A DNA stretch of 64,000 nucleotides from contig JAJFLQ010000116.1 of NCBI GenBank assembly GCA_021772615.1, positions 97,744-161,743 on the forward strand, written 5' to 3'. Positions 1 to 46,948 of this stretch are shown in pieces. The position numbers and the translations under genes are program-made. The notes under the pieces were generated by a model. That model was not told the origin of the DNA. It saw only the letters and a program-made list of their open reading frames with translations, and ran no database searches. The DNA comes from Verrucomicrobiota bacterium (GTDB lineage Bacteria > Verrucomicrobiota > Lentisphaeria > JABSQK01 > JAJFLO01). The stretch's first letter is position 1; every line of letters starts with the position of its first letter.

Positions 1-1085
1 TCCAGCACCAGATCGGCGTCGAGCACGACGATTTCGGAATGGTTGCGCGCCTGCCTCAACAGCGCGTCACCGTAAGCAGGAATGAGGCGTTGGGGCTGCA
101 GCTCCGACGGCTGTGCGGACGCGCAGCGGTTCCCGGATTCATCCGGCGCGCGCTGCAGCGCCAGCCCTGCGCCGCCGACCGCCCGCACAAGGCGATCGGC
201 TTCCGCCGCCAACTCATCCATCGCGCAGCGGTAAACATCGGTGTCGGGCGCGCCGCTGTGATACGCATACAATGCCTGATCCGGCGCCATCGCCGTGTGT
301 TCCATAAAGGAGACGCCGCGCCCTTTCACCGTATCGGCGATGATCACTTTCGGGCGGTCGTCTACGGCGCGATTCGCTGCAATGACACCGCCGAATGCAG
401 CTACATCATGACCGTCGCAGCGCGCGACATGCCAGCCGAATGCCGCACATTTCGCTTCGATCGCACCCAAGTCGCTGACACGAGACACCAGGGTGTCGGA
501 CTGCACTTTGTTGTGATCGACAATCACGGTTATCTCACACATACCGAGATTGGCGGCCGACGCCAGTGATTCCCATATCTGCCCTTCCTGCAGTTCGCCG
601 TCGCCGGTCATGACGTAGATGTGCCGTCGTCGTCCCACAATACGATCGGCCAGGACCATGCCTTTGGCTTTCGATATGCCCATCCCCAGCGAGCCGGTAT
701 TAGCAGCGATACCGGGTATCGCAATATCCGGGTGCCCCGGCAACCCGTCCATACGCCGGAGTCGATGGATGAGATCGAAATCAAGACGACCAATCCCGGT
801 AAGTACTGCGTAAAGTCCGGGAGCATCGTGCCCCTTGGACGAAAAATACACGTCCTCGCAGGCGCCATCGGGCCGGAAGCTCCGCAATGTGTCAAGATAC
901 AGCCAGCTCACGATATCAAGACTGCTGAAACTGCTGCCGATATGGCCGGAACCCGCCCGCATGATCATGTACAACGTATTGATCCGCGCGAGGGCGGCGA
1001 AGGCACGCACCCGCTCCGTCGCAGCAACATCCGCTGCGACAACGCCGTGAAACACGTCCTGCGACACGTATTGCAGATCAGTCAT
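1..1085 (-). CDS. tkt: Transketolase (partial; the protein's C-terminal end lies beyond position 1). The reading frame runs from the TPP-binding N-terminal domain into the start of the pyrimidine-binding domain, so it appears to be a fused single-chain enzyme.
   Basis: Minus-strand translation from the ATG at 1083-1085 begins MTDLQYVSQ. It contains GSGHIGSSFSSLDIVSWLY (the transketolase GH motif) and YVMTGDGELQEGQIWE (TPP/Mg binding). After the N-domain it continues with ...IVVLDADLVLD, typical of the start of the C-terminal domain. The ORF is open to the window edge, so it is missing from the ORF track because no stop lies in the window. Confidence 0.8.
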   Translation of the reverse strand, partial: MTDLQYVSQDVFHGVVAADVAATERVRAFAALARINTLYMIMRAGSGHIGSSFSSLDIVSWLYLDTLRSFRPDGACEDVYFSSKGHDAPGLYAVLTGIGRLDFDLIHRLRRMDGLPGHPDIAIPGIAANTGSLGMGISKAKGMVLADRIVGRRRHIYVMTGDGELQEGQIWESLASAANLGMCEITVIVDHNKVQSDTLVSRVSDLGAIEAKCAAFGWHVARCDGHDVAAFGGVIAANRAVDDRPKVIIADTVKGRGVSFMEHTAMAPDQALYAYHSGAPDTDVYRCAMDELAAEADRLVRAVGGAGLALQRAPDESGNRCASAQPSELQPQRLIPAYGDALLRQARNHSEIVVLDADLVL

Positions 1086-1845
1086 GGCGGGTGTCCGGGG
1101 TTGTCACAGGCTGGATCTCTGGAAGCGTTACCAGTCCCGTTGCAAGCAGATACTCGACGTACGACCAGTCCGCCGGCACGTTGATATCGACGCCTTCGTA
1201 GTCGACGGTTTCGAACGGCATCACAACGCTGCCGGCAATAGAACGGCCGGCGAGGACGATACGAGTCCACGCGATCTCCAGCGACGCGTTCTGCACATAG
1301 ACTTCGGGCAGGGCTTGGTACGGGCTGCTGTGCCAGGGGCGACCGCTGTGTTCGAACGGCAACAGCGGCAGCATTTTGCCGGCGCGCACCACCCACATCT
1401 TGCCCGGATGCTCGCGGCACCTCTCGACCGCACGTAGCGAATCCACATCGCACTCGGCCAGAAACACCGACCAGGCCCGACGAATCGTCGCCGCCCGGCG
1501 AAACGGACTTGTCGGTCGCAGAATCGCGAAGCAATCGTATAGACAGCCATCGGCGCGCAGTCGGCTTAGGGTGTAGTACACCCAGTCGATGTCCGGTGAA
1601 CCGCCTGCGGCCATGGCCGCAGGCCGCAGGAACGGCGTCTCGGCGCCGTAGTCGCGTGCGATAGCTGCATAGGACTCGGAGTCTGTGGATACCACCACGC
1701 TTTTAAAAATACCGCTTTCCTGCGCCGCGACGATGCTGTAGGCAAGCAAAGGATGACCATTCAGCTTGCGGACATTCTTGCCGGGAAGCCGGTTCGAGCC
1801 GGCTCGCGCCGGGATCAATGCAATAATGCTTGGCGTGTCAGGCAT
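1078..1845 (-). CDS. Acylneuraminate (CMP-nonulosonate) cytidylyltransferase, NeuA/CTP_transf_3 family
   Basis: The N-terminus IALIPARAGSNRLPGKNVRKLNGHPLL matches the CMP-sialic acid synthetase signature (IPARGGSKGIPxKN). It is 255 aa and overlaps the tkt start by 8 bp, consistent with an operon. Confidence 0.8.
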   Translation of the reverse strand: MPDTPSIIALIPARAGSNRLPGKNVRKLNGHPLLAYSIVAAQESGIFKSVVVSTDSESYAAIARDYGAETPFLRPAAMAAGGSPDIDWVYYTLSRLRADGCLYDCFAILRPTSPFRRAATIRRAWSVFLAECDVDSLRAVERCREHPGKMWVVRAGKMLPLLPFEHSGRPWHSSPYQALPEVYVQNASLEIAWTRIVLAGRSIAGSVVMPFETVDYEGVDINVPADWSYVEYLLATGLVTLPEIQPVTTPDTRHD

Positions 1846-1940
1846 GGTTATGAACGTTGGTTACGGGAGGGATAGGACGGATCGGTCGGATCAGTCTGAT
1901 CGGCCTCGCCACTCCAATCAGTCCCAACCGCATCGCCGCG

Positions 1941-3404
1941 CTAGAGCGCCTTGGGGTCGACATTGATGTAGACGTCTTTCAACTCGGAGTACACATCGAG
2001 CGCCTCCGTTCCGGGTTCGCGCCAACCGTTTCCGGAATGCTTCGGTCCGCCGAACGGCATGTGTGGTTCGCTGCCATATGTACCGGCGTTCACAACCACG
2101 GCGCCGGCCTCGACTTTCTGTGTAAACACCTGTGCTCGGTGCAGACTTGCCGTATGAATACACGCCGTCAGGCCGTAGGGCGAGTCATTCGCCATGGCCA
2201 GCGCCTGCCGGAATCCCTTGACACGGTACAGGCATGCGACCGGTCCGAACAACTCGTGCGTCGAGATCTCACTGCGCGGTCCAGCTTTCTCGATGAGCGT
2301 CGGCGCCATATAAAACCCGTCGCGATGCTCCGAATCGAGGAGTCGCGAGCCGCCGGTGAGTATCGTCGCTCCATTGTCGTTTGCGCGAGAGACGACAGCC
2401 ACCATGCGCTCGAGCTGTTTGAGATTAATCACCGGTCCGAGATCGTTCTGGTCGGTCGGTCCGAGCGTGAGTTTCCGGGTCCTTTCGATCAGGCGCTCGC
2501 AAAACGCGTCGTAAATCGCGTCGAATATAATGATGCGACTGGCCGCCGCGCATCGCTGGCCGGCATTACTGAACGCCGAAAGCAGTGTCCACTCAACAGC
2601 TTTCTCCATGTCAGCATCGTCGCAGACCACGAGAGGATTCTTGCCTCCAAGCTCCAGCGACACCCGCGCCAGACGCTGCCCCGCCAGTGCCGCGATCCGT
2701 CGGCCGACCTCCGTTGATCCGGTAAAACTGATAAGATCAACAGCAGGATGCGCCACCAGCGGGCCTCCGGCCTCCGGCCCAAGCCCATGCACCACATTCA
2801 ATACACCGGGCGGAAGCCCTGCATCCGCCGCGATGCGGCTGAAGGCCCAGGCCGTTGCCGGCGTGTCCTCGGCGGCCTTTAACACTGCGGTGTTACCGCA
2901 GATCAATGCCGGGAAAACCTTCCATGCCACGTTGGCTATCGGCGTATTGGCAGCAATGATCAAACCCGCCACACCGACAGGACCGCGGATGGTCATCGCC
3001 GATTTATTCGGCACCGCGCTGGTTGTGGTCCGACCATATAGTCTGCGTCCCTCGCCGGCCATGAACATACCGAGTTCGACTGCGCCGCCGGTTTCACCGA
3101 GAGCGTCCCGCGGGCACTTACCGGTTTCGAGAGCGACAATCGCTGCCACCTCTTCCTGGCGGTCACGAAGCGCCAGCGCAACATCCCGCAGGATATCGCC
3201 CCGGCGCACCGGCGTAAGGTCCGCCCACCCCGGCTGTGCCGCACACGAAGCAGCGATCGCGGCCTCCACATCGCCTGTACGTGAGCGCGCAAATGTGCAG
3301 ATCTCACTGCCGTCGTGAGGATTGCGCTTGCTTAACACATCACCAGATTCAGCTGGGGCCTCACAGCCATTAATGGTGTTCAAAATTACGGCCGGAATTG
3401 TCAT
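1941..3404 (-). CDS. Aldehyde dehydrogenase family protein (NAD(P)-dependent)
   Basis: A 487-aa product with the ALDH motifs ELGGKNP and FTGSTEVG, a catalytic Cys region (QRCAAASR), and the length typical of the family. Confidence 0.85.
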   Translation of the reverse strand: MTIPAVILNTINGCEAPAESGDVLSKRNPHDGSEICTFARSRTGDVEAAIAASCAAQPGWADLTPVRRGDILRDVALALRDRQEEVAAIVALETGKCPRDALGETGGAVELGMFMAGEGRRLYGRTTTSAVPNKSAMTIRGPVGVAGLIIAANTPIANVAWKVFPALICGNTAVLKAAEDTPATAWAFSRIAADAGLPPGVLNVVHGLGPEAGGPLVAHPAVDLISFTGSTEVGRRIAALAGQRLARVSLELGGKNPLVVCDDADMEKAVEWTLLSAFSNAGQRCAAASRIIIFDAIYDAFCERLIERTRKLTLGPTDQNDLGPVINLKQLERMVAVVSRANDNGATILTGGSRLLDSEHRDGFYMAPTLIEKAGPRSEISTHELFGPVACLYRVKGFRQALAMANDSPYGLTACIHTASLHRAQVFTQKVEAGAVVVNAGTYGSEPHMPFGGPKHSGNGWREPGTEALDVYSELKDVYINVDPKAL

Positions 3405-3441
3405 CGTCCAAGAGTCCTCTTCACTTGTTCATGCCGTCCTC

Positions 3442-4260
3442 TCACCATGCCGTCCAGCCACCGTCCACAACCAGATTCGCACCTGTCATATACGATGATG
3501 CATCCGAGATCAGAAAAACGATCACGCCGTCGTACTCGCCGACCCGCGCCATCCGGCTCAGCGGCGTGCGGCTGCAATACGCTTCGAGAAAGGCATTGTC
3601 CTGATTGTCGAACACACCGCCGAATGTGATGGTGTTGGCGCGAACATTCTGGTGTCCCCAGTAGGTGGCTACGTACCGTGTGAGATTCAATATTGCCGAC
3701 TTCGACGCCGAGTAGGCTACCGGCTTATAAAACGGCGGCCCGGATTCCCGACGGTAGTCATAGATCCGCTGGTCCGGTGATACGATGCCATAGATTGAGC
3801 TGATATTGATAATCGATCCTCGGCCGGCTCGTGCCATCGACGCTCCCACAACCTGGCAGCACAAAAACGGACCTTTTATGTTCACATCGAACACGGCGTC
3901 CCACGCCATCTCGGGGTAATTCTCGAATGCACCGTTTTCCGCCGTCGAGGCATCCGGAGGGGCGTCCAACCCCGCGTTATTCACCAGAGCGTCCGGGGTA
4001 CCCCACCTTGCTTCGACCAGGGACAACGCGTCGAGGATGGCAGCTTTGTCGGTGATATCGACTTCAAGGAAACATACATTCGATTGGTGCGCCTGATCGC
4101 CGAATCGAGCTTGAACAACTTCCGGATTACAGCAAATGTCAAACACCGCCACATTCGCGCCCCTCGCGATCAGAGCGAGGACGTATCCGCGGCCCAACCG
4201 CCCCAATCCGCCGGTGACGATCACGATCTTATCCTTAATATCAAAACAATCACGCGCCAT
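3442..4260 (-). CDS. Short-chain dehydrogenase/reductase (SDR) family oxidoreductase
   Basis: The N-terminal Rossmann motif VTGGLGRLGRGY and the catalytic YSASKSA (YxxxK) motif are present in a 272-aa product. Confidence 0.85.
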   Translation of the reverse strand: MARDCFDIKDKIVIVTGGLGRLGRGYVLALIARGANVAVFDICCNPEVVQARFGDQAHQSNVCFLEVDITDKAAILDALSLVEARWGTPDALVNNAGLDAPPDASTAENGAFENYPEMAWDAVFDVNIKGPFLCCQVVGASMARAGRGSIINISSIYGIVSPDQRIYDYRRESGPPFYKPVAYSASKSAILNLTRYVATYWGHQNVRANTITFGGVFDNQDNAFLEAYCSRTPLSRMARVGEYDGVIVFLISDASSYMTGANLVVDGGWTAW

Positions 4261-4804
4261 CGGGCCGACCGTCTTCGATCCACACGTATCTTATGAGATC
4301 ACATACCTCACGCACGGCCCCGTGACCACCGGCAGCGCGGGTCGTGTACACGCCGAGCGCAGCCACGTCCGGGTGCGCGTCGCACACCACGATCGGCAGT
4401 CCCACACAGCGCAGACAGCATGCGTCATTGATATCGTTGCCGACGAATGCGACCTCGTCCAGGCTGCGGCAACCAACCATATCCAGATGCGTCTCCAGCG
4501 CACTGCTTTTGTCGAGACAACCTTGCACCCATGCGATGCCGAGCTTCCGGCAGCGTGCCTCAACAACCGGATTGGTCTCACTCGAAATAACCACTGTCGC
4601 CACACCGAGTCGCTCAAGGCGCGCGGTCCCAATGCCGTCGCCGCGCCAGCACCTTATCGACTCTACGCCGTGTTGATCCACAAAAACAGTGTTGTCGGTG
4701 AACACACCGTCGAAATCAAAGGCCACCAGGCGAATAGCGAGTATACGCTCCGTCAATTCGGACGATAATTGATAATCCATCCCGGCAGTGTTCATGAGAG
4801 ACAC
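4250..4804 (-). CDS. HAD-IIIA KdsC-family sugar-acid phosphate phosphatase (KDN-9-P / Neu5Ac-9-P / KDO-8-P phosphatase-like)
   Basis: FDFDGVFTDN is the HAD motif I (DxDGV) and GNDINDA is the HAD motif IV. The 184-aa size matches KdsC-type phosphatases. The gene overlaps the upstream NeuB-type synthase and the downstream SDR. Confidence 0.8.
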   Translation of the reverse strand: MSLMNTAGMDYQLSSELTERILAIRLVAFDFDGVFTDNTVFVDQHGVESIRCWRGDGIGTARLERLGVATVVISSETNPVVEARCRKLGIAWVQGCLDKSSALETHLDMVGCRSLDEVAFVGNDINDACCLRCVGLPIVVCDAHPDVAALGVYTTRAAGGHGAVREVCDLIRYVWIEDGRPDGA

Positions 4805-5841
4805 TCCAATGTGAATGCCTCATCGGCCTCCAGAGTGCGCGAAAGCGTCCCGCCGATTACTGCGTCGATCGCGTACGGCGGTAAGCCTTCTCCGGGTGAC
4901 TTGATGGCGACGTCGGCAGCAGTGACAACATGACCGACAGCAAGACCACGCGACGCGACCAGTTGCTTGCCCAGCTTACGAACGGCAGCCGCTTCAGAAG
5001 GATACGGCCTTTTGACGCCGTCGCCCAGGGCGGCACGGGCGCGGCGCAGATCACGGACCAGCTTGCGCAGCCCCGGTCGCTCGAGCGAAAATGCGTGGTC
5101 AGTGCCCTTTGACGCACGATCGAGGGTGAAGTGTTTCTCGATCACACGCGCACCGAGTACATACGAGACAAGCCCCATGGCGATGCCGCTGTCATGCCCG
5201 GAATATCCGATAACGGTGTCTGGATAGCGCTCGCGATAGGTCGAGATCACACGAAGATTCAGCTCCTCATAGGCAGGTGGATATCCGGCCGTGCTCTGCA
5301 GCAGGCAGATCCGATTGTTTAGCGATCGAACCGCGTCGACCGCGCGGTCGACGTCCTCGATCGTCCCGCCACCGGTACTGATAAGCATTGGCTTCCCGAA
5401 CGCCGCGACGTGGGTGAGGAGGGGAATATTGACCAGGTCGGCCGATGCAAACTTGTATGCCGGCATATCGAGGCGGTAAAGAAAGTCCGCGCTCGGTATG
5501 TCGAAAGCTGTGGCAAAAAACGTGATTCCTATGGAGTCAGCATAGACCTGGAGGACACGATATTCGGCTTCACTAAACTCGAGATGCTCACGGTGCTTAC
5601 CATACGTAGCGCCATAGCTGTTCTCGTTGTCATACGGCCGGTCGTAATAGGCGCGCGTAAAAAGCGATCGATTGTCTCGCTTCTGCAGCTTCACGGCATT
5701 GGCGCCACACTCGGCAGCCGCCTTGAACATGGCCTTGGCGATTGTGATATCGCCTTGATGATTGTGACCGATTTCGGCGATAACATACGCATCACTACCG
5801 TCGTCTATGTCGCAAGAATCGATTGTAAGTGTTCGCGTCAT
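4792..5841 (-). CDS. NeuB-family nonulosonate synthase with C-terminal SAF domain (N-acetylneuraminate / KDN-9-P synthase-like)
   Basis: YVIAEIGHNHQGDI...AVKLQK is the NeuB signature. The C-terminus looks like a SAF/antifreeze-like domain. The ORF could extend to 5892, but the ATG at 5841 has a GGGGAAACGGGA ribosome-binding site immediately upstream, so I prefer it as the start. Confidence 0.85.
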   Translation of the reverse strand: MTRTLTIDSCDIDDGSDAYVIAEIGHNHQGDITIAKAMFKAAAECGANAVKLQKRDNRSLFTRAYYDRPYDNENSYGATYGKHREHLEFSEAEYRVLQVYADSIGITFFATAFDIPSADFLYRLDMPAYKFASADLVNIPLLTHVAAFGKPMLISTGGGTIEDVDRAVDAVRSLNNRICLLQSTAGYPPAYEELNLRVISTYRERYPDTVIGYSGHDSGIAMGLVSYVLGARVIEKHFTLDRASKGTDHAFSLERPGLRKLVRDLRRARAALGDGVKRPYPSEAAAVRKLGKQLVASRGLAVGHVVTAADVAIKSPGEGLPPYAIDAVIGGTLSRTLEADEAFTLECLS

Positions 5842-6123
5842 TCCCGTTTCCCCAATCTTCGACCCGGTCCGATACATCGACGCGGCAGACATGGCGTTCG
5901 CGATTGATGCCTCAGGAGCGGTCGATGCAAAGGCGATACAGTACGCCGGGCCTCACGAAATAAAAGCAACGAGACCCAGCCAATTCCAGGAACGACATAG
6001 ACTTGTCGCGGCGTATCACCAAGGGCATAGTAGTATGCGTCTGACGCAGCGGATGATCTTGTGCGATACGATAACGCATGCGAACCACCGTCGCCGTATT
6101 CTTAACAAGGAATCATTGGCGCC

Positions 6124-6160
6124 GCGGCGTGAAACCCACACTGAAGTGTGAACTCCAACG
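6124..6160 (+). repeat. Hairpin repeat family, B-type copy
   Basis: gcggcgtgaaacccacactgaagtgtgaactccaacg. Confidence 0.8.
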
Positions 6161-6338
6161 TCATGTCTTGCAAAGGACGGTCATTATTCAACGTCATTGC
6201 ATGAGTACACGACCATGTCTTTACCTGCGACGATTTGTTCTGGAACACGATATTTTGGAAACGAATTGAACGCAGCCCACCCCGCGTTTTTCGGTGCAGA
6301 GTCGCTAAAACGCCCAAACAACAATCAGGAGCCATAAC

Positions 6339-6788
6339 ATGCACAACATCATCACGAGCTTTCGAACCATGGCTGTAGCGACAGCCGTTCTCATTTCATT
6401 CATGCAGCAATCGGCGTGGTCGAGGGACAGGCCGCCAAGAGGCGGTGATAAGGAACAGAATGCGCCTGAAGAATCGGTAACTATTGATAAGGTCGTATTC
6501 TCCGAAGAAAACGGTATTTTCAAGTTTACTGAGTACAACCCGAGCAATAACAGGAAATATGGCCAGAAAATTCGCAAGGTGACGTATATACGACCGAGTG
6601 CAATCGTTTCGATGGAACTTGACGTTATTAAGGACAATCCATATCTGATTATCACGACGGAGAATAACCTGAATCAGGACAAGGTATTTCGGATTCTCGT
6701 TGAAGATATTGACGATACACAACGGAAAATCGACAAAATTCTCAGTCGAACAGACAAAAATTTGCTGCACGGTGTGAATCCGAAGTAA
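6339..6788 (+). CDS. Hypothetical secreted protein (N-terminal signal peptide)
   Basis: A 149-aa ORF whose N-terminus MAVATAVLISFMQQSAWS reads as a signal peptide. The region has visibly lower GC than its flanks, and there is a GGAG ribosome-binding site before the ATG. I recognise no domain. Confidence 0.5.
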   Translation: MHNIITSFRTMAVATAVLISFMQQSAWSRDRPPRGGDKEQNAPEESVTIDKVVFSEENGIFKFTEYNPSNNRKYGQKIRKVTYIRPSAIVSMELDVIKDNPYLIITTENNLNQDKVFRILVEDIDDTQRKIDKILSRTDKNLLHGVNPK

Positions 6789-6820
6789 CGACGATATATC
6801 TCCGGGTCACGCAATCCAAC

Positions 6821-7114
6821 TTGACGCCGAGCAGGAGCCTACACATAAACACTGAACATAGAAACACAACATACTGGCGTAAGAACCTGCAGTACCTGGC
6901 GGTACTGTTATGCCTGTGGTTCGGTGTGTCGCTGGGGTGCGGGATTCTCTTTATTGACACTCTGGATCGCTTCGAGATTGGTGGATTCAAGCTCGGCTTC
7001 TGGTTTGCACAGCAAGGATCGATCTACGCCTTCGTCGCGATCATTTTCACGTATGTCTTTTTGATGAATCGTCTCGACAAGCAGTACGAGGCCGACAAGC
7101 GGGACGACGCCTGA
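6821..7114 (+). CDS. DUF4212 protein (putative solute:sodium symporter small subunit). It has a non-ATG (TTG) start and no adjacent transporter gene, so it may be a decaying gene.
   Basis: YWRKNLQYLAVLLCLWFGVSLGCGILF ... GFWFAQQGS matches the DUF4212 pattern. No in-frame ATG exists. Immediately downstream is only a 12-codon remnant, ATGGCCGAGGGTATGGACGTACGAACCTGGACATTGTGA. Confidence 0.5.
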   Translation: MTPSRSLHINTEHRNTTYWRKNLQYLAVLLCLWFGVSLGCGILFIDTLDRFEIGGFKLGFWFAQQGSIYAFVAIIFTYVFLMNRLDKQYEADKRDDA

Positions 7115-7489
7115 TGGCCGAGGGTATGGACGTACGAACCTGGACATTGTGATTCTGCGGACGTCGGTGCGGAACCCGGCGGGCAATGAATCGGGGCCAA
7201 TACGTCGGTTTTGTGTTCATGACGCGGAAAAAGCACCAGCTAAAGCTTTGAGGTCCAAGGAAGTGCGTACGATATTGCCGACTGCGATGATCAATGTATA
7301 ACGCCGAATACCGACATTGTATGTACCGGCTCCAGGTGGCGCGCCCGATCTGGCAGCCTGAGTCGCTCTTCGGTTCGAACGGTGCAGAACCCGGCTGAGC
7401 GGCAAGTAAAAAACCGGAAACACTGACGGACATGTCCCGGCTGAAGCCGGGTAAAGGCTTCCGACTGAAGTCGGTACTCAGAGGATTCT

Positions 7490-8875
7490 TTAGTGTTGCG
7501 TTTCCATTCGATCGGCAACGTCGATCGCCATTGTTCTTGCCGGGTGCCTGGTAGAGGTTCCGGTCAGTTCGACAAGGTCCTCTGCATCCTCGCTTGCCTC
7601 TATGAGCCAGCGACGACGAGCCTCGTCCTGAGTCCACGCATCCGCATGGTCACATCGATCGAGTGCGATCAAAAGCTCGGTCGTAGATTGTGGACGCCGT
7701 TCCGGCTGCTTTTCGAGACAATGCAGTATCACTGATTCGAAGTCTGCCGAGATGCGATTGCTGCACCGTTTGGACGGTGCTTCCGGCGTATTGCTGAGAT
7801 GAGCCTGAAACGTTTCGTATGCACTTTTTTCCTCGAACACATTCGTTCCGGTTACCAGAAAATACGCTAATGCTCCCAACGAATAGATGTCGCTCAATTC
7901 GTCGACACAGTCGGGTGTTATAATGCTTTCGGGCGACATGTATGGCGGTGTCCCCGCCAGTTCGGAGCCGGTCGAGGGTGCCTCGAAGGGATTGTTTTCA
8001 TCGATATTCTTGACAATCCCGAAGTCAAGCAGCTTGGCGAACCCGAATATCCCGCCGCGCTTGCAGATCATGACATTCGCCGGCTTGATGTCGCGATGGA
8101 TCAATCCGCATTCGTGCGCTTCTTCCAACGATGAGACGACCTGCGCGAGTATATAAATCACCCGTGCCTCCGGCAGCGCGCCGAAGCGTTCCACCAGTTC
8201 CTTTAGATTGAGTCCCGGCAGATACTCCATTGCATAATAAAAAATCCCTTCAGGCGTCCGACCGTAGTCGTAGACCACGATCGTGTTCGGATGCGACAGT
8301 TGACTCGTGAGCTGCACCTCCTGCTCGAAGTAATCGAGAATCTGCTCGTTCACTTTCCTGGGTTTCAGGAGCTTCACAGCCGTTGGCCGCCGCAACATCG
8401 CGTGACGGGCGACATAGACTTCGGCCATGCCACCGGTACCGATCTGCCGGTGAAGCGTGTACTGTCCGAGCTTCTTGACCTGGGACAGGGCCTGACTGCG
8501 TTCGAGACAGTGGTTTATTCGCGCCTCAAGCAAGGTGGGATTGAATGGCTTCGTAAGATAGTCGTCGGCACCGATACGAATGCATTCTACAACTTTCTCG
8601 ATCGCCTCGTTTCCGGACAGCATGATCACCGGTACACCGGCCCGCCGTGGATCGTTCTTTAGCCGCGACAACAACGTGAGCCCGTCCATATTCGGCATGG
8701 TGAGGTCCAGCAGAATCAGGTCGGGGTGATGTCCGCCATCGAGCAGCTCCAGCGCACAGTTACCGTCGTTTGCAACGACGGATTCATGTCCCAGGGTGTC
8801 GACAAAGTCTGCCAGGATACTCTGGTAGATCCGGGTGTCATCGACAATCAAAATGTTGGACTTCTGGACGGACAT
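7490..8875 (-). CDS. Response-regulator receiver domain fused to a Ser/Thr protein kinase (REC-STK hybrid)
   Basis: The N-terminal REC domain (ILIVDDTRIYQS...DLILLDLTMPNMDG...GADDYLTKPF) is followed by a Hanks-type kinase with GTGGMAEVY (the P-loop), HRDIKPANVM, DFGI and YMSPE motifs. Confidence 0.85.
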   Translation of the reverse strand: MSVQKSNILIVDDTRIYQSILADFVDTLGHESVVANDGNCALELLDGGHHPDLILLDLTMPNMDGLTLLSRLKNDPRRAGVPVIMLSGNEAIEKVVECIRIGADDYLTKPFNPTLLEARINHCLERSQALSQVKKLGQYTLHRQIGTGGMAEVYVARHAMLRRPTAVKLLKPRKVNEQILDYFEQEVQLTSQLSHPNTIVVYDYGRTPEGIFYYAMEYLPGLNLKELVERFGALPEARVIYILAQVVSSLEEAHECGLIHRDIKPANVMICKRGGIFGFAKLLDFGIVKNIDENNPFEAPSTGSELAGTPPYMSPESIITPDCVDELSDIYSLGALAYFLVTGTNVFEEKSAYETFQAHLSNTPEAPSKRCSNRISADFESVILHCLEKQPERRPQSTTELLIALDRCDHADAWTQDEARRRWLIEASEDAEDLVELTGTSTRHPARTMAIDVADRMETQH

Positions 8876-25847: not shown

Positions 25848-27320
25848 ATGTTTGAAGACGCCGAAAAAGGAACGTCGTTGTCAAGAGCCGAGTATAAAGC
25901 AGCAGTGCCCGCTCTACGGGCAGAGCTGTTGAACGTACAGTTTGATCTGAAAAACGCCGGTTTCCCGGTGATCATACTGGTATCCGGCGTGGACGGCGCC
26001 GGCAAGGGCGATGTTGTCCATCATCTCACCGAATGGCTCGATCCGCGAGGCGTCGAAACGCACGCATTCTGGGAAACGTCGGACGAAGAGCGGGAACGTC
26101 CGGAATACTGGCGATTCTGGCGGGCGATGCCGCCCAAGGGCCAAATCGGCATTCTCTTCGGCTCGTGGTACACGAATCCGATTATACTGCGGGTTCGCCG
26201 CACTATCGATACAGGCGTACTGGACCGTCGCCTCGACCATATCACCGCGTTTGAGCGCATGCTCACGGACGACGGTGCATTGCTTATCAAACTCTGGTTT
26301 CACATGTCCAAGGAGGCGCAGTACCAGCGGCTGCGTCAGCTCGAAAAGGACAGGCACACCCGGGGCAAAGTGACCCCGACGGACTGGAAGCACCACAAGA
26401 TGTACGATCGGTTTCTACGCATTTCCGAGCACGCCATCCGGCGCACGGACGCGGCGCATGCGCCGTGGACACTCATTGAGGCGGTTGATGCGAATTACCG
26501 GGAAATCGAGACCGGCCGTGTCGTGTTGAAGGCGCTGCAGGAGCGGTTGCAAAGGCCACCGACGAAGGCAACCGCACCAGCCGAAAGGATACCAGCGATT
26601 CAGCGGAACGCGGTACTTGACGCTATTGACCTGTCGCCGTTGGCGCCGCCACAAACACTGAAACAGACGTTGCGGCGGCACCAGGGAAAGCTTTCGCGTC
26701 TTGCCTGGAAGGCGCGCCGGAAGAAGGTATCGGTGGTTGGCGTGTTCGAAGGATGGGACGCAGCAGGGAAAGGCGGTGCGATCCGCCGCGTCACGCACGC
26801 CATGGACCCGCGGCTCTTTCGGGTGGTCCCAATTGCCGCGCCAAACGACGAGGAGCGCGCGCAGCACTACCTATGGCGTTTCTGGCGCCAGCTGCCGCGG
26901 GCCGGGAAGATGACACTATTCGACCGCTCCTGGTACGGCCGAGTACTGGTCGAACGCGTGGAAGGATTTGCGCAAGCAGACGAATGGCAACGCGCCTACC
27001 AGGAGATCAATGCATTCGAAGAGGAACTGACAGACCACGGCATCGTGCTGCTCAAGTTCTGGCTGCATATCAGTAAGGACGAGCAGCTGCAACGCTTCGA
27101 GGCCCGTAAGGATGTCGCCTACAAGCGTCACAAGATTACAGACGAAGACTGGCGCAATCGCGAGCAGTGGGACGCATACGAGCTTGCCGTGACCGAAATG
27201 GTCGAGCGGACCAGCACCGATTACGCGCCTTGGACATTGGTTGGCGGCAATGACAAACGCAGTGCCCGCGTCCAGGTTGTACAGACATTCACTCGCGCGT
27301 TAAAAAAAGCTCTGGGCTAA
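25848..27320 (+). CDS. Two-domain polyphosphate kinase 2 (class II PPK2, polyphosphate:AMP phosphotransferase-like)
   Basis: There are two tandem PPK2 modules, each with a Walker A (SGVDGAGKGD and VFEGWDAAGKGGA) and a Walker B-like WFHMSKEAQ / WLHISKDEQ lid motif. The length is 490 aa. Confidence 0.85.
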   Translation: MFEDAEKGTSLSRAEYKAAVPALRAELLNVQFDLKNAGFPVIILVSGVDGAGKGDVVHHLTEWLDPRGVETHAFWETSDEERERPEYWRFWRAMPPKGQIGILFGSWYTNPIILRVRRTIDTGVLDRRLDHITAFERMLTDDGALLIKLWFHMSKEAQYQRLRQLEKDRHTRGKVTPTDWKHHKMYDRFLRISEHAIRRTDAAHAPWTLIEAVDANYREIETGRVVLKALQERLQRPPTKATAPAERIPAIQRNAVLDAIDLSPLAPPQTLKQTLRRHQGKLSRLAWKARRKKVSVVGVFEGWDAAGKGGAIRRVTHAMDPRLFRVVPIAAPNDEERAQHYLWRFWRQLPRAGKMTLFDRSWYGRVLVERVEGFAQADEWQRAYQEINAFEEELTDHGIVLLKFWLHISKDEQLQRFEARKDVAYKRHKITDEDWRNREQWDAYELAVTEMVERTSTDYAPWTLVGGNDKRSARVQVVQTFTRALKKALG

Positions 27321-41692: not shown

Positions 41693-44600
41693 ATGTCCGA
41701 AGAATCATCACCAACCAATCCCGATGCACCACAAGCCGCTGCCACCGAAGACCAGAGTGGAGAGACGCTGGAAGGCGGCGCCTACGAAGTACTGCGAAAA
41801 CGCCTGAGTACGCTCAATCGTAGCCTCCTGAAGAAACTCGAACAACTCAACGTCCGGCGCAAAGACGTGTTCGGCGGCCAGGAGCTGGCGATCCTGGGCA
41901 ACGCCCGCATCAAGACCGAGAACAACTGCGTCCCCAGGGATATCATCGGCGTCGGCAGCCATCTGATCTTCGGCTACAACGTGTTTATCGGCCTCAAGTC
42001 CGAAACCGCGGTCAGCGACGTGTTCAGCGTGCATCGCTTCGACGGCGTCGATCTCCACCTTCCCGACGCGGACGTGCTCGGCGATCCGAATTTTCTGCGC
42101 GACTTCAGCGAACTGTACAAGTACTATAAGAACGCACGGTTCCTGCAATTCATCAAGTCTCCCGGGCGCCTGCTGATGATCTTTCAGGTCGGCGAAACCG
42201 TCGGCGACCGCAAGATGTTTCGATTCAAGCTCCATCGCGACCACACGCTGGAATATGTCGACGACCGCGGCGATCTCGAATACACGCCGCCGCCGCAACA
42301 TGATTTCGAATGGGAATCGCCGTCGCGTGACGATCACGTGGCGGGCATGTATCCGCACATATCCATCCGGGATATTGTTTTTGTCGAATGCGTCGGCGGC
42401 GATCTCACGATAAAGGTAGAGAACAACACCGAGAGCGGCGACGGCATTTATGAGGAAGCGGTCGAGAATCCGGATCAGACCCTTGACGACGCTTATATTC
42501 GCTACGCACTGGTGGATGGCCTGGTGCTGCTAAAAATCCGGCCCTACCGTGAGAACGTCACGCGCTACCTCGTCTTTAATCCAAAGGACCAGACGGTCAC
42601 CCGTATCGATTCCATTGGCGAGGCCTGTATCAAACTGCCGGAAGGACACGGGCTTATTTTTCCCAAAGGCTACTTCCTGCATGGCGGCGGTGCACGACAA
42701 TTCGACGAAGATGTGGCGGGTATGCTGTACCATGATTGCGTCCGCTCCCCTAATGGCGAGGACTTCCTCTATATTTTTTATCATCGCGAGCACGGCCGTC
42801 ACATCCTGATTCGCTACAATCTCATCTCCAAGGAAATCTCGAATCCCATAATCTGCCATGGTTATTCGCACTACGATGACGGCAAGATGATGATGTTCAC
42901 GGCGGAGAACGACGACCCGCGCCGGGTGCATCCGATGCAGATCTGGCAAACACCGTTCTACGCCGACTCGTTCGAGATCGAACACAAAACAGACTCATTC
43001 CTCACCAAGATCGGCAATCGTGATCTTGTGCGCGGCATCTCCGAAGGCTACGCCATCAGTCGCCTGGCGGGAAGTGAACGGGTAACGCTGGTGATCTACC
43101 AGGACCTGATCCAATCCTGTACCAATATGATCGACGGCTACCATTGGCTTGATCACGACGAGGTGTTCAACCTGCAGTCGCTGGTAAAGGAGATGAAAAC
43201 TGCGGCATCGGCAGCGATCGACGAGTACGAGAAAGTTGTCCGCATCCGCGAGAATACTGCGACACGCATCACCGAAAGTGTGGCATCGGTCAAGCGCTGC
43301 CGGCTGGACTACGCCACGGACCGATTGCTCACTATCGACAACTTCGTTACCGCTCTGAGCGAGGTGCGGACGCTGCGCGGTCATGTGATCTCACTACGCG
43401 AGTTGCGCTATGCCGACCTTGCCCTGATCAATGATCTCGACAAACAGCTTGAGGTGATGAACCAGGACATCTCCGTGGCCTGCGTCGATTTTCTGATGCG
43501 CGATGATGCGCTCGCGCCGTACGAAGTACGTAACCGCGAGATCGAGGCGGGTATCGACAGTATCCACAAGATCGCCGATCTCAAACCACAGGCAGAATCT
43601 CTCGAGACGCTCGCGGCACAACTCGACCTGCTCACCGATGTCATTAACAATCTGAACATCGACGACGCCACCAAGACCACCGAAATCGTCGATAAGATCA
43701 CGGACATTTATGCCGGCGTCAATCGGACGCGCGCCCTGGTTCGCAATGCGCGCACGGAGCTGGGAAAGTCCGAAGCCAAGGCCGAATTTGCAGCGCAATA
43801 CAAGCTGCTGAGCCAGAGTATCAGCAACTACATCGGCATGTGCGACACCACGACAAAATGCGATGAATTCCTCACCAAGGTCATGATTCACATCGAGGAG
43901 CTGGAAGGAAGATTCGCCGATTTCGAAGACTACGTAATGCAGCTGCACGAGAAACGGGAAGAAGCCTATACAGCGTTCTCGAGTCGCAAACAGATCCTTG
44001 ATGACGAGAAGAAGCGCCGGATCGGGTCATTGGCATCATCTGCCAACCGAATCCTGAAAGGCGCGGTCAACCGTGCGGAGACATTCAAGAGCGTCGACGA
44101 GGTCAACGCCTACTTCGCCTCGGACCTCATGGTATCGAAACTACGAGGTATTGTCGAGACATTGCACGACATGGGGGATTCGGTAAAAGCGGATGACCTT
44201 AGCGGCCAGATAAAGACCGCCAAAGATGAAATCGTCCGCCGGTTGCGGGACAAGTTGGAGTTGTTTGATGAAGGCGACAATGTCATTAAACTTGGCGATT
44301 ACCGCTTTACGGTAAACACGCAGCCACTCGAACTCACGACGGTGATGCGGGACGGCGACATGGCATTTCACCTTAACGGAACCGATTTCTACGAGGCGAT
44401 AAACGATCCTGAGTTTCTGGAGACGCGGAACCTGTGGACGCAGGAATTGGTAAGCGAAAATCAAGAGGTATTCCGCGGCGAATTTCTGGCCTACCAGATT
44501 CTAATGGCCGCCGAGAACAACGATAAGAACCTTACTAACGAATCATTGAAGACTCTGGCAGTCAACGACGCGAAGTTGCTCGAATGCGTGCAACATTTTT

Positions 44601-46948
44601 GCGCGGACCGATACGATGAGGGCTACGAAAAAGGCGTTCACGATCACGATGCTGCCCGCATCCTGAAGGCCCTGGTCACGTTGCTACACGAGGCGCAGCT
44701 GCTACGGTACGACTCTGTGTCGCGCGCACATGCGATCCTGTTCTGGTGCTATTCGCCGGACGGACCGGCCAAGGAACGGCTGCGCAGCAAACTGCGCAGC
44801 ATCGGCGCCCTGCCGGCGGTATTCGGCTACACCGATACGTACCCACCCTATGTCGAAGAGATACGTGAGGCCATGGCCGCATTTTTCACCGATCTCGGAC
44901 GCATTCCAGACGCAACGATCCTGACCAATGCATCCGAGTATCTGTACCACGAGCTTCAGGATGCAAGCGATCTTGAGATCACCATCAGTCAGGAGACAAA
45001 GACCCTACGTGAGCGGTTCACAACATATCTCAAGGATAAGACGGTGTACCGCAAATTCACGGACGACATCCGGGCAATGGCGTCCGACCTGAAAAATACA
45101 CTTAGCCTCGTACATGACTGGGTCGCCGCCTACGTGCGCACGTGCGAAAACGATGACGCCGCGTTCCTGATTGACGAGGTCGTTACACTGATTGTTGCCG
45201 GCGACCGTTTCGTGGTCGATACTACGTCGGTCGTGACGTCTGCAACCGTCACGGACCTGCTGGGACGGCACCCGCGTATCGAGGGCAGTTCTATGCCGAT
45301 GCATCTCGACCGTTTCCTGCTCCGCCTCAAGACATATTGCGAGGTGCAGGTACCGCTCTACCGACGGTTTATCCATATGCGGACGGCGTTTATCGAGAAT
45401 CGGCGGGAGTCCATGCGACTGTCCGAATTCCAGCCCCGTGTCATGGGATCCTTTGTACGCAACAAGCTGATCAATGACGTCTACCTGAACCTGGTGGGCG
45501 CGAACTTCGCCAAACAGATGGGCGCTGCCGGCGAAAACAAGCGCACCGATCTCATGGGCCTGTTGTTGTTGATCTCGCCGCCCGGCTATGGCAAGACGAC
45601 CCTCATGGAATACATGGCCAACCGCCTCGGGCTCACGTTCATGAAGATTAACGGGCCCGCGATCGGTCACAAAGTCACGTCGCTCGATCCCGCCGAGGCG
45701 CCCAATGCCACAGCACGCGTCGAGCTGGACAAGCTGAACCTGTCCCTGGAGATGGGCAATAACGTCATGATCTATCTCGACGATATCCAGCACGTGAACC
45801 CCGAATTTCTGCAGAAGTTCATCTCGCTTTGTGACGCCCAACGGAAGATCGAAGGCGTGTATCGCGGGGTCACTCGCACATATGATCTGCGCGGAAAAAA
45901 GGTAGCCGTAGTGATGGCAGGAAATCCTTACACCGAGAGCGGCGATACGTTTCAGATCCCGGACATGCTCAGCAACCGCGCCGACACGTACAACCTCGGC
46001 GATATCTCAACGAGTGCCGCGGATGTATTTGCCATGAGTTTCATAGAAAATGCGATGACCTCAAATCCGGTACTTAACAAGATCAGCAGCCATGGGCATG
46101 ATGACGTCTACCGGTTTCTTGATGCGGTCGACCGGGGTTCCGCCGACGGCATTACATTCGACTACGGATACTCAGTTGCCGAAGTTGACGAGATACTCAA
46201 TGTGCTCCGAAAGCTGTGTAAGGTGCGTGACGTCGTGCTCGAAGTAAACCGGCAGTACATTTACTCGGCGGCGCAGCAGGACGACTACCGCACCGAGCCA
46301 CCTTTCAAACTCCAGGGTTCCTATCGCAACATGAACCGTATGGCAGAGAAGGTTTTCCCGGTCATGACCGATGCGGAAGTCGAGCAAATCATCACCGATC
46401 ATTACTACAACGAGGCCCAGACACTCACAGCCGGTGCAGAAAGCAATATCCTCAAATTCCGTGAGATCACCGGCAAGCTCGCTGACAACGACCTGGCGCG
46501 TTGGAATGAAATCAAGGGCGAATTCAACCGGCGTCAGGCGTTATCCGGCATCGACGACAGCGACGATCTGGGAAAGATTCTGGCGCAGCTTTCCGGATTC
46601 ACCGCAAGTGTCGGAAAGGTTCGCGACGTCCTCGACAAGGGGCTTAATACGGGGCTTAAAAACGTGCTCGAAGCCGTCGCTATGCGGTCGGCGGCTGCGG
46701 CAACGGATCGTCCGGATATCACGCCGCTCATCGACGCGGTGAAGGCGCTTGCGCCAACACCGGAAAGCACGGCAGCTACATCACCAAACGACAACGCAAC
46801 AGCCATAGCCGCTCGACAAACGGAAATACTTGAATCCATCGCCGGGATCCTCGAAGAACTCAAGGACAACAGCGAAACCAACGTACGCCTTCGCGACCTT
46901 ATCGAGCAACTAATGAAAGGCAGCCTTGTCGTCGACCTAAAAGACTGA
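41693..46948 (+). CDS. Giant (1751 aa) uncharacterised protein with a C-terminal MoxR/AAA_5-like AAA+ ATPase module
   Basis: It is a single uninterrupted ORF. Near residue 1270 there is a Walker A LLLISPPGYGKTTLMEY, then a Walker B VMIYLDDIQH, then a MoxR-like sensor KVAVVMAGNPYTE...IPDMLSNRADTYNL. The preceding roughly 1250 aa are largely helical and match no domain I can name. Confidence 0.85.
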   Translation: MSEESSPTNPDAPQAAATEDQSGETLEGGAYEVLRKRLSTLNRSLLKKLEQLNVRRKDVFGGQELAILGNARIKTENNCVPRDIIGVGSHLIFGYNVFIGLKSETAVSDVFSVHRFDGVDLHLPDADVLGDPNFLRDFSELYKYYKNARFLQFIKSPGRLLMIFQVGETVGDRKMFRFKLHRDHTLEYVDDRGDLEYTPPPQHDFEWESPSRDDHVAGMYPHISIRDIVFVECVGGDLTIKVENNTESGDGIYEEAVENPDQTLDDAYIRYALVDGLVLLKIRPYRENVTRYLVFNPKDQTVTRIDSIGEACIKLPEGHGLIFPKGYFLHGGGARQFDEDVAGMLYHDCVRSPNGEDFLYIFYHREHGRHILIRYNLISKEISNPIICHGYSHYDDGKMMMFTAENDDPRRVHPMQIWQTPFYADSFEIEHKTDSFLTKIGNRDLVRGISEGYAISRLAGSERVTLVIYQDLIQSCTNMIDGYHWLDHDEVFNLQSLVKEMKTAASAAIDEYEKVVRIRENTATRITESVASVKRCRLDYATDRLLTIDNFVTALSEVRTLRGHVISLRELRYADLALINDLDKQLEVMNQDISVACVDFLMRDDALAPYEVRNREIEAGIDSIHKIADLKPQAESLETLAAQLDLLTDVINNLNIDDATKTTEIVDKITDIYAGVNRTRALVRNARTELGKSEAKAEFAAQYKLLSQSISNYIGMCDTTTKCDEFLTKVMIHIEELEGRFADFEDYVMQLHEKREEAYTAFSSRKQILDDEKKRRIGSLASSANRILKGAVNRAETFKSVDEVNAYFASDLMVSKLRGIVETLHDMGDSVKADDLSGQIKTAKDEIVRRLRDKLELFDEGDNVIKLGDYRFTVNTQPLELTTVMRDGDMAFHLNGTDFYEAINDPEFLETRNLWTQELVSENQEVFRGEFLAYQILMAAENNDKNLTNESLKTLAVNDAKLLECVQHFCADRYDEGYEKGVHDHDAARILKALVTLLHEAQLLRYDSVSRAHAILFWCYSPDGPAKERLRSKLRSIGALPAVFGYTDTYPPYVEEIREAMAAFFTDLGRIPDATILTNASEYLYHELQDASDLEITISQETKTLRERFTTYLKDKTVYRKFTDDIRAMASDLKNTLSLVHDWVAAYVRTCENDDAAFLIDEVVTLIVAGDRFVVDTTSVVTSATVTDLLGRHPRIEGSSMPMHLDRFLLRLKTYCEVQVPLYRRFIHMRTAFIENRRESMRLSEFQPRVMGSFVRNKLINDVYLNLVGANFAKQMGAAGENKRTDLMGLLLLISPPGYGKTTLMEYMANRLGLTFMKINGPAIGHKVTSLDPAEAPNATARVELDKLNLSLEMGNNVMIYLDDIQHVNPEFLQKFISLCDAQRKIEGVYRGVTRTYDLRGKKVAVVMAGNPYTESGDTFQIPDMLSNRADTYNLGDISTSAADVFAMSFIENAMTSNPVLNKISSHGHDDVYRFLDAVDRGSADGITFDYGYSVAEVDEILNVLRKLCKVRDVVLEVNRQYIYSAAQQDDYRTEPPFKLQGSYRNMNRMAEKVFPVMTDAEVEQIITDHYYNEAQTLTAGAESNILKFREITGKLADNDLARWNEIKGEFNRRQALSGIDDSDDLGKILAQLSGFTASVGKVRDVLDKGLNTGLKNVLEAVAMRSAAAATDRPDITPLIDAVKALAPTPESTAATSPNDNATAIAARQTEILESIAGILEELKDNSETNVRLRDLIEQLMKGSLVVDLKD

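Follow-up and report, generated by a model that had tools for sequence, protein, structure and literature searches.

The operon at the start of the window

We analysed a stretch of 64,000 nucleotides (nt) from a Verrucomicrobiota bacterium (GenBank assembly GCA_021772615.1, contig JAJFLQ010000116.1, positions 97,744 to 161,743 of the forward strand), referred to here as the window. Open reading frame (ORF) listing, translation, and Pfam and NCBIfam assignments gave six co-directional minus-strand genes at positions 1-5892. They encode a NeuB-family synthase with a C-terminal SAF domain (4792-5892; 366 amino acids (aa) from the first ATG, 361 aa in the database call), a probable KdsC-family (type C0) haloacid dehalogenase (HAD) phosphatase (4250-4804, which gives 184 aa with the GTG start at 4804; 181 aa if the ATG at 4795 is used), a classical short-chain dehydrogenase/reductase (SDR; 3442-4260; 272 aa; PF13561 and PF00106), an NAD(P)-dependent aldehyde dehydrogenase (ALDH; 1941-3404; 487 aa; PF00171), a NeuA/PseF-like cytidylyltransferase of the CTP_transf_3 family (1078-1845; 255 aa; PF02348), and the N-terminal 361 of the 652 aa of a transketolase (TK)-like thiamine diphosphate (ThDP) enzyme (1-1085; PF00456), whose gene runs off the start of the window. 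These assignments bear out the gene identities given in an earlier sequence-only reading of this DNA. For all six genes, every NCBIfam equivalog score lies under its curated cut-off, and therefore none of them can simply be assigned to a named equivalog. It is very probable that the genes represent a conserved cassette for a tailored cytidine monophosphate (CMP)-nonulosonate, in which the SDR, TK-like and ALDH proteins are the tailoring enzymes.

The six genes had been described as overlapping. This holds for the NeuB/HAD junction (4 nt, ATGA, with the HAD start at 4795, or 13 nt with the GTG start at 4804), the HAD/SDR junction (11 nt) and the cytidylyltransferase/TK junction (8 nt), but SDR and ALDH are separated by 37 nt and ALDH and cytidylyltransferase by 95 nt. 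Window positions 1-5341 are matched at 100% identity by the Logan contig L083, which continues for a further 1056 nt. Its gene call for the HAD protein is 181 aa, and it contains the full TK-like protein, a single 652-aa polypeptide that comprises the Transketolase_N, Transket_pyr and Transketolase_C domains, in agreement with the single-chain transketolase proposed earlier. Just past window position 1 (L083 6212-6397) lies a seventh gene, whose start codon overlaps the stop codon of TK (ATGA) and which reads MKIMFVTYPLHLRYFQ... Because of this further gene, the operon has at least seven members and is cut by the window edge. No Rfam family was found in window positions 1-8000, and no sigma-70-like promoter was found upstream of the synthase. 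The 2 kb directly upstream of the operon (6001-8000) has the lowest GC content of the window (0.51 vs. 0.55-0.61). Only short ORFs without assigned function were seen in this low-GC region, including 6339-7114. The region may have a regulatory function or be the scar of an insertion.

The synthase is a member of the NeuB family, with a PF03102 TIM barrel (251.6 bits, E 9.6e-75) and an SAF/AFP-like domain (PF08666, 34.8 bits, E 2.5e-8), both above the gathering scores. The cut-offs of the NeuB_NnaB model TIGR03569 (277.2 bits, cut-off 399.65) and the PseI model TIGR03586 (217.8 bits, cut-off 340.25) were not reached. Aligned over 331 aa with 3 gaps, it and the verified mammalian N-acetylneuraminic acid 9-phosphate (Neu5Ac-9-P) synthase P0123 are 42% identical, and the two proteins have in common an RPY..S.G.TYG.H..HLEFS insertion after the first beta-alpha unit. 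The human NANS reference was checked in the database, where clusters named N-acetylneuraminate-9-phosphate synthase match it with 96-97% identity. Identities to the ordinary bacterial NeuB/PseI-type synthases of the fetched loci were 33-38% (tblastn), and the alignment with the best NeuB entry of PDB (6NCS) is gapped at the NANS-type insertion. In a neighbour-joining tree built without bootstrap, the window-type synthases neighbour NANS and a Bacteroidales synthase, which is 40% identical to the window synthase and is followed by a gene for a HAD protein scoring 150 bits against the model of the phosphatase for 3-deoxy-D-glycero-D-galacto-nonulosonic acid 9-phosphate (Kdn-9-P; cut-off 180). 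Judged by identity, insertion and adjoining HAD gene, the window synthase is in the NANS-like, 9-phosphate-forming clade, with its substrate use predicted. It probably condenses phosphoenolpyruvate (PEP) with a hexose-6-phosphate such as mannose 6-phosphate (Man-6-P) or N-acetylmannosamine 6-phosphate (ManNAc-6-P). The cassette has no conserved gene that would supply ManNAc-6-P, and the simplest guess is therefore that Man-6-P is used and yields Kdn-9-P. The resemblance to the Neu5Ac-9-P synthase and the probable KdsC-family phosphatase gene next to it agree with the 9-phosphorylated intermediate that had been proposed for this locus.

The HAD protein has DxDG and GNDIND motifs in its translation and no Pfam match. 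It scored 110 bits against the NCBIfam KdsC model NF007019 (cut-off 208), 94 bits against TIGR01670 (cut-off 106.95) and 77 bits against the Kdn-9-P phosphatase model NF058599 (cut-off 180), and it matched KdsC and homologues of the Bacteroides Kdn-9-P phosphatase in PDB with E values of 1e-29 to 1e-17. Its probable role is to strip the terminal phosphate from the ulosonate. The cytidylyltransferase matches PF02348 with 69.4 bits (E 5e-19) and scores 120 bits with the PseF model TIGR03584 (cut-off 205.7) vs. 34-44 bits with KdsB models. Its best PDB matches are NeuA and CMP-Neu5Ac synthetases, and it is a probable source of the CMP form of the final ulosonic or ulosaric acid. We also looked for a KdsA-type synthase and for clustering of the cytidylyltransferase with KdsB. 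Among the genes at 1-5892, there was no Pfam or NCBIfam match to a DAHP_synth_1-type (KdsA) 3-deoxy-D-manno-octulosonate (Kdo) 8-phosphate synthase domain. A Kdo/lipopolysaccharide (LPS) locus is ruled out by the NeuB plus SAF synthase, by the lack of this match and by a cytidylyltransferase nearer to PseF/NeuA than to KdsB; the locus is sialic acid-like, as first read.

The core of the cassette resembles known pathways. Kdn synthesis in Bacteroides thetaiotaomicron uses a Kdn-9-P synthase (BT1714), a Kdn-9-P phosphatase (BT1713) and a CMP-Kdn synthetase. As in this pathway and in the animal NANS/NANP/CMAS pathway, the window has a synthase predicted to use a phosphorylated substrate, followed by a probable C0 HAD phosphatase and a CTP_transf_3 enzyme. 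Unlike either of them, it adds conserved SDR, ALDH and TK-like proteins, for which neither pathway has a counterpart; the three had been correctly noted as non-standard for such pathways. The low score of the HAD protein with the Kdn-9-P phosphatase model is a further difference from B. thetaiotaomicron, and the final product is probably other than Kdn. With the bacterial NeuC-NeuB-NeuA, pseudaminic acid (Pse) and legionaminic acid (Leg) pathways, the cassette shares the PEP-condensing NeuB enzyme and CMP activation. In contrast to them, the window has no NeuC and none of the dehydratase, aminotransferase and acetyltransferase genes of the Pse and Leg routes, and would use a phosphorylated route with a phosphatase instead.

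Conservation of the cassette and its variants

Two sets of loci were fetched and their genes were scored by tblastn. The forward set consists of 80 species-representative genome loci fetched with the synthase. For the reverse set, the TK-like protein was the only query, and 80 metagenome loci were fetched. Synthase relatives at 65-69% identity number in the thousands, and each of two collection scans gave at least 600 matches. Of the forward loci, 42 had 6 kb or more of downstream sequence and a synthase of at least 50% identity. SDR was found in 37 of them, ALDH in 34, cytidylyltransferase in 30, TK-like in 23 and KdsC-type HAD in 17. When the synthase was less than 50% identical (25 loci), the corresponding numbers were 4, 0, 18, 1 and 1. 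Loci retrieved with the TK-like protein and having at least 6 kb upstream (n = 25) contained NeuB in 21, SDR in 24, ALDH in 23 and cytidylyltransferase in 23 cases. The same gene association was seen in Pfam-labelled contexts from an independent index, and across the fetched loci ALDH almost always adjoins SDR or TK. The SDR, TK-like and ALDH genes are a conserved, defining part of a widespread cassette. They are not embedded oddities, as the sequence-only reading had it, but are conserved with the synthase in most orthologous loci. With these three further genes conserved, the cassette falls outside the definition of a Bacteroides-type Kdn operon (synthase, C0 HAD and cytidylyltransferase only).

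One could suppose that a Kdn operon has come to lie beside TK and ALDH genes of central metabolism, or of other unrelated pathways, because TK, ALDH and SDR are very common families and the ALDH/cytidylyltransferase and SDR/ALDH junctions have no overlap. The reciprocal co-occurrence effectively refutes this idea, and its probability is negligible: dozens of independent loci, spread over many phyla, share this set of genes, which is far beyond what chance would give. In addition, the TK-like subfamily has active-site changes of its own, and start and stop codons overlap at the NeuB/HAD, HAD/SDR, cytidylyltransferase/TK and TK/next gene junctions. According to record titles, the hosts include Deltaproteobacteria, Desulfobacterales, Alpha- and Gammaproteobacteria, Gemmatimonadales, Acidobacteriota, Actinomycetota (Gaiella, Thermoleophilia and Solirubrobacterales), Chloroflexota, Chthonomonas (Armatimonadota), Fibrobacterota and one Micrarchaeota metagenome-assembled genome.

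Individual loci carry additional genes. In one metagenome locus (L002, 11099-11543 and 16881-17569), toxin-antitoxin-type genes (for a ParE toxin and a HEPN/nucleotidyltransferase pair) and a sulfotransferase gene lie between cassette genes, with the gene order intact. In L165, a HAD_2-type hydrolase follows TK in the absence of a KdsC-type HAD. A Chloroflexota locus without ALDH (L025, 13208-16443) has two GDSL/SGNH hydrolase-family genes between the cytidylyltransferase and TK-like genes, which may encode O-acetyl esterases or transferases for the sugar. In Gaiellales/Thermoleophilia (L043, 13920-16722; L067, 16089-16931), an ApbA/PanE-like keto-acid reductase gene lies between ALDH and cytidylyltransferase and is followed by a gene for an enolase-superfamily (MR_MLE) protein. 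This Actinomycetota variant may perform further deoxygenation of an acidic tail. In Streptomyces sp. NBC_01237 (NZ_CP108509.1; L164, 64-20422), contiguous genes for NeuB (53%), SDR and a TK-like protein (52%) are placed within a nonribosomal peptide synthetase (NRPS) cluster containing C-A-T-TE modules, a P450 and Hpg-type genes (HmaS-like dioxygenase, FMN_dh and aminotransferase). After NeuB-SDR-TK come an RmlD-like reductase, a HAD_2 hydrolase, a class-III (omega) aminotransferase and a LuxR regulator, and the locus has no ALDH or cytidylyltransferase. This gene content suggests a sialic acid-derived amino building block in a secondary metabolite, and suggests that the same chemistry feeds secondary metabolism too.

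The transketolase-like enzyme and a proposed tailoring route

The TK-like protein aligns end to end with human TK (E ~1e-70) and scores 370 bits against the NCBIfam transketolase model NF004559 (cut-off 488). We compared the active sites of 21 and then 79 members of its family, including the window protein, with that of human TK, whose numbering is used here. H37, K75, H77, H110, D155, N185, K244, H258 and E366, which serve ThDP binding, metal binding and catalysis, are invariant in 79 of 79 sequences. Structural work on TK has shown that R318, S345, H416 and R474 bind the sugar phosphate. In essentially all 79 sequences these residues are replaced (R318 by I or V, S345 by D, H416 by L or, in some, Y, and R474 by S, N or I). 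D424 is changed to Pro and Q428 to His, and about 59 further positions are family-specific. D424 of TK hydrogen-bonds the C4-OH of the donor and the C2-OH of the acceptor and enforces D-threo stereochemistry. Because the phosphate site and D424 are replaced and the NF004559 cut-off is not reached, we call the protein transketolase-like and not transketolase (EC 2.2.1.1). It shares the three-domain fold, the length class, ThDP binding and the catalytic His and Glu with human TKT and split-chain bacterial TKs. Unlike canonical transketolases such as human TKT and E. coli TktA, it has lost the phosphate binders and the D-threo-selecting Asp, and its gene is tied to sialic acid genes rather than to the pentose phosphate pathway. 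These residue patterns predict an active ThDP enzyme with a substrate other than an ordinary sugar phosphate. The change of D424 to Pro would fit a donor whose C4-equivalent oxygen is a ring oxygen.

The sequence-only reading had offered two roles for the additional enzymes, a dedicated route to an unusual sugar-phosphate precursor or a tailoring step on the nonulosonate. A variant arrangement bears on this choice. In about nine metagenome loci (L137, L138, L139, L141, L142, L147, L148, L150 and L151), SDR-TK-ALDH-NeuC-NeuB-NeuA are contiguous (arrangement C). The NeuC of L138 passed its equivalog cut-off (327.5 bits vs. 235.9), and its NeuB belongs with the ordinary bacterial enzymes (368 bits; 36% identity to NANS). 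After NeuA in this locus (L138, 6004-18347) come genes for a TagB-like/BFO_1060-like transferase, GT87, Wzm, and Wzt with Wzt_C. In arrangement C the SDR-TK-ALDH trio is joined to a canonical Neu5Ac pathway within an ABC-transporter O-polysaccharide-type cluster. NeuC-NeuB-NeuA is a complete CMP-Neu5Ac pathway from UDP-GlcNAc, and because the trio adjoins this self-sufficient set, it probably tailors the sugar rather than supplying a precursor. The trio was found with at least three synthase clades in the neighbour-joining tree (types A, B and C), and common to the products of these clades is the C7-C9 glycerol side chain.

A precursor role would have TK, SDR and ALDH build an unusual aldose or aldose phosphate for NeuB-type condensation with PEP. 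Transketolases normally interconvert sugar phosphates, so that a dedicated one could supply a rare acceptor, and the window synthase sits in the phosphorylated-substrate clade. However, all four phosphate-binding residues are lost in the TK-like enzyme. Moreover, transketolase gives ketoses whereas NeuB enzymes need aldoses, and an isomerase is not among the conserved genes of the cassette. The presence of the trio beside complete NeuC-NeuB-NeuA sets, which need no extra precursor, also argues against this role. We consider it improbable; tailoring of the nonulosonate, the other option of the sequence-only reading, is the better fit.

For the tailoring itself, we tentatively propose that C8 oxidation, excision of a C2 ketol and oxidation of the resulting C7 aldehyde would lead to a CMP-activated 3-deoxy-heptulosaric acid resembling 3-deoxy-D-lyxo-hept-2-ulosaric acid (Dha). 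First, the NANS-like synthase would condense PEP with a hexose-6-phosphate to a 9-phosphorylated ulosonate, which would be Kdn-9-P if the substrate is Man-6-P, and the KdsC-family HAD protein would take off the 9-phosphate. The SDR would then oxidise the C8-OH to give a terminal CH2OH-CO-CHOH tail. The TK-like enzyme would use this 8-keto tail as a ketol donor and remove C8-C9, so that the pyranose ring then carries an aldehyde at C7, and the ThDP-bound ketol would be passed to an acceptor or set free as glycolaldehyde. ALDH would turn the C7 aldehyde into a carboxylate, producing 3-deoxy-hept-2-ulosaric acid (C7H10O8 from Kdn) or, with a Neu5Ac start, the 5-acetamido analogue. The NeuA/PseF-like enzyme would finally make the CMP-sugar. 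Its transfer may be carried out by a TagB/KpsC-like GT-B transferase encoded just past the window edge, and in related loci the product would enter surface polysaccharides exported by ABC transporters or flippases. As predictions from protein families, the synthase, phosphatase and CMP-activation steps are well supported. That a TK-like enzyme has been recruited specifically to cut C8-C9 from 8-keto Kdn or Neu5Ac, with ALDH completing the CMP-activated acid, we suggest still more cautiously.

Several observations are consistent with this chain-shortening route. Using the standard Fischer projections of Kdn and Neu5Ac, we read the tail of an 8-keto D-glycero-D-galacto nonulosonate from C9. The C7-OH is on the left and the C6-O on the right; the tail is therefore D-threo, as in C1-C4 of fructose and xylulose. 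This is the donor stereochemistry required by TK. The route accounts for the missing phosphate site of the TK-like enzyme and for its change of Asp to Pro. It also employs each of the six genes once and agrees with the SDR-TK-ALDH order of arrangement C. The SDR has TGxxxGxG, NNAG and S...YxxxK motifs, and its nearest NCBIfam models include PRK09186, GolD/DthD, gluconate-5-dehydrogenase, mannonate oxidoreductase and KduD, all with scores far under the cut-off. The reaction proposed for it is like that of the KduD, gluconate 5-dehydrogenase and mannonate oxidoreductase SDRs, which oxidise the penultimate carbon of sugar acids and make a terminal ketol. FabG-type models score similarly to KduD-type ones, and the apparent resemblance is a lead, not a test. 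ALDH is a member of the aldehyde dehydrogenase superfamily (PF00171, 495 bits, E 2e-148), with the catalytic Glu of ELGGK and Cys of GQRC present. Its nearest NCBIfam models are 2,5-dioxovalerate and alpha-ketoglutarate-semialdehyde dehydrogenases (414 and 410 bits; best 414 vs. a cut-off of 750), and a relationship to 2-keto-acid semialdehyde dehydrogenases would agree weakly with the proposed step. In the Streptomyces NRPS cluster the aminotransferase replaces ALDH; both consume aldehydes, which fits the route.

Other observations weigh against it. The three middle steps (SDR, TK-like and ALDH) are deduced from the genes present and their order, from residue patterns and from stereochemical arguments, and the route names no acceptor for the ketol. 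The family matches of SDR and ALDH are generic, all below curated cut-offs, and so are their PDB matches. The predicted configuration from Kdn is L-arabino whereas natural Dha is D-lyxo, and an L-arabino-configured 3-deoxy-heptulosaric sugar is not known to have been reported. The gene set is also incomplete in some loci. SDR and ALDH occur without a nearby TK in L003 and L006, and seven Actinomycetota loci (L033, L035, L037, L043, L045, L046 and L048) have no TK within 10 kb; in three others (L020, L053 and L067) TK is 6-9 kb away. An obligatory SDR-TK-ALDH chain would leave the loci with SDR and ALDH only unexplained, unless their TK is elsewhere in the genome. SDR and TK were found without ALDH in L025, L044, L118, L133 and L166, and NeuB-TK alone in L039, L040 and L050. 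Finally, one locus (L167, 10001-21074) contains only NeuB-SDR-cytidylyltransferase with no ALDH or TK, and thus SDR is able to function without them. Four sulfotransferase-family genes surround this set, and its sugar or polymer may be sulfated.

The main rival to chain shortening draws on the same variants. Acting as a pair that needs no third enzyme, SDR and ALDH could convert the primary C9-OH, exposed once the phosphatase has acted, into a C9 carboxylate and so make a nonulosaric acid. The TK-like enzyme would then have a separate role such as further modification in some lineages. SDR and ALDH nearly always adjoin and are still paired when away from the synthase (L030, L032 and L036), and the TK-less loci of L003, L006 and several Actinomycetota would then be complete. 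The enolase-superfamily acid-sugar dehydratase and ApbA-like reductase of Actinomycetota need a terminal carboxylate with an alpha-H and a beta-OH. This logic, however, is equally workable on a C7 carboxylate, and secondary alcohols are the usual substrates of such classical SDRs. C9 oxidation also leaves the most tightly linked gene unexplained, as the TK-like gene occurs with ALDH in 23 of the 25 TK-retrieved loci and lies between SDR and ALDH in arrangement C. We regard C9 oxidation as unlikely.

The ability of SDR to act independently of TK, as in L167, could also speak for a different use of the trio. The ThDP-bound glycolaldehyde might be made into glycolate or glycerate to decorate the nonulosonate, or SDR might epimerise a hydroxyl while ALDH detoxifies glycolaldehyde released by TK. 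N-glycolyl and N-glyceroyl nonulosonates exist, and TK-like E1 enzymes deliver glycolyl units in quinocarcin and naphthyridinomycin biosynthesis. But the cassette has no conserved gene for an acyl carrier protein, a ligase or an acyltransferase, and Kdn has no amino group to acylate. We give this explanation little credence.

The product predicted by the chain-shortening route is, like Dha, a 3-deoxy-2-ulosaric acid of seven carbons that has carboxylates at the two ends of the pyranose, and like Kdo and sialic acids it would be CMP-activated. It would differ from Dha in its L-arabino configuration if made from Kdn. According to a 2025 review (PMC12168206), the synthesis of Dha and its nucleotide-activated form are unknown, and for plants this has been so since 1988. 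Dha is also present in the LPS of Rhizobiaceae (Russa 1991, as cited in PMC5713287). On Rhizobium, Sinorhizobium and Agrobacterium plasmids and chromids we found no ortholog of the TK-like protein but only ordinary split TKs of at most 35% identity, and a link to Rhizobiaceae Dha through these replicons was not upheld.

Searches of the full-text literature gave no description of a NeuB-type synthase combined with SDR/ALDH/TK and a cytidylyltransferase, and the cassette is apparently undescribed so far. The type of CMP-nonulosonate pathway is known; the tailoring module is apparently new. Because the cassette is common and was not described in the literature searched, an abundant component of environmental glycans may be unrecognised. 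Nonulosonic acids are of key importance as surface determinants, and the diversity known among them arises through variation of amino groups, acyl groups and epimers. A module that edits the carbon chain would be a new principle for this diversity. If the product is a heptulosaric acid, the cassette would provide the first biosynthetic route and enzymology for ulosaric (Dha-like) sugars, a new reaction type for the transketolase fold, and a ready gene set for enzymatic synthesis of C7 sialic acid analogues. It would also suggest that soil and aquatic bacteria carry unrecognised, phylogenetically widespread dicarboxylic surface sugars, possibly at the chain ends of ABC-transporter-exported polysaccharides.

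Transfer, export and the rest of the window

The statement of the sequence-only reading that no glycosyltransferase or flippase is present in the window is correct for the surroundings of the operon, and a candidate transferase gene begins directly past the window edge. The known 62 aa of the seventh gene match family F64, whose members are about 500-540 aa long (with calls of up to about 850 aa) and which occurs in at least 12 cassette loci. This family has no Pfam match but is homologous to the PF04464/BFO_1060-like protein of L138 (27% identity, E 1e-20). The seventh gene is a candidate for a CMP-sugar transferase, and its family is a distant relative of TagB-like putative nonulosonate transferases. 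A second family (F21; about 570-590 aa) lies directly after TK in at least 25 loci, and 6 of 12 members have a weak match to PF05159 (Capsule_synth). When F21, F64 and L138-type proteins were aligned (alignment A1), an RxHP motif, two Trp and two Gly were invariant, while the families are 15-20% identical. An HP motif is typical of CMP-sugar transferases (sialyl and beta-Kdo), and the invariant RxHP appears reminiscent of it. Sequence searches of PDB with the two candidate transferase families gave no match.

Many cassette loci lie in polysaccharide clusters with Wzm/Wzt (also with Wzt_C), MsbA-like exporters or Wzx, rhamnose genes and several methyltransferases. In the window, the lone glycosylation-related gene away from the operon encodes a PMT_2/ArnT-like GT-C protein of 713 aa (53059-55200, minus strand), 47 kb from the operon.

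Other genes of the window were also noted. A gene at 7490-8875 (minus strand) appears from its translation to encode a response-regulator receiver fused to a Ser/Thr protein kinase (461 aa). On the plus strand are genes for a two-domain PPK2 polyphosphate kinase (25848-27320), a protein of 1751 aa that contains DUF3686 ("ATPase involved in DNA repair"), an AAA domain and DUF7902 (41693-46948), and a bacterial ankyrin-repeat protein (51981-52943).

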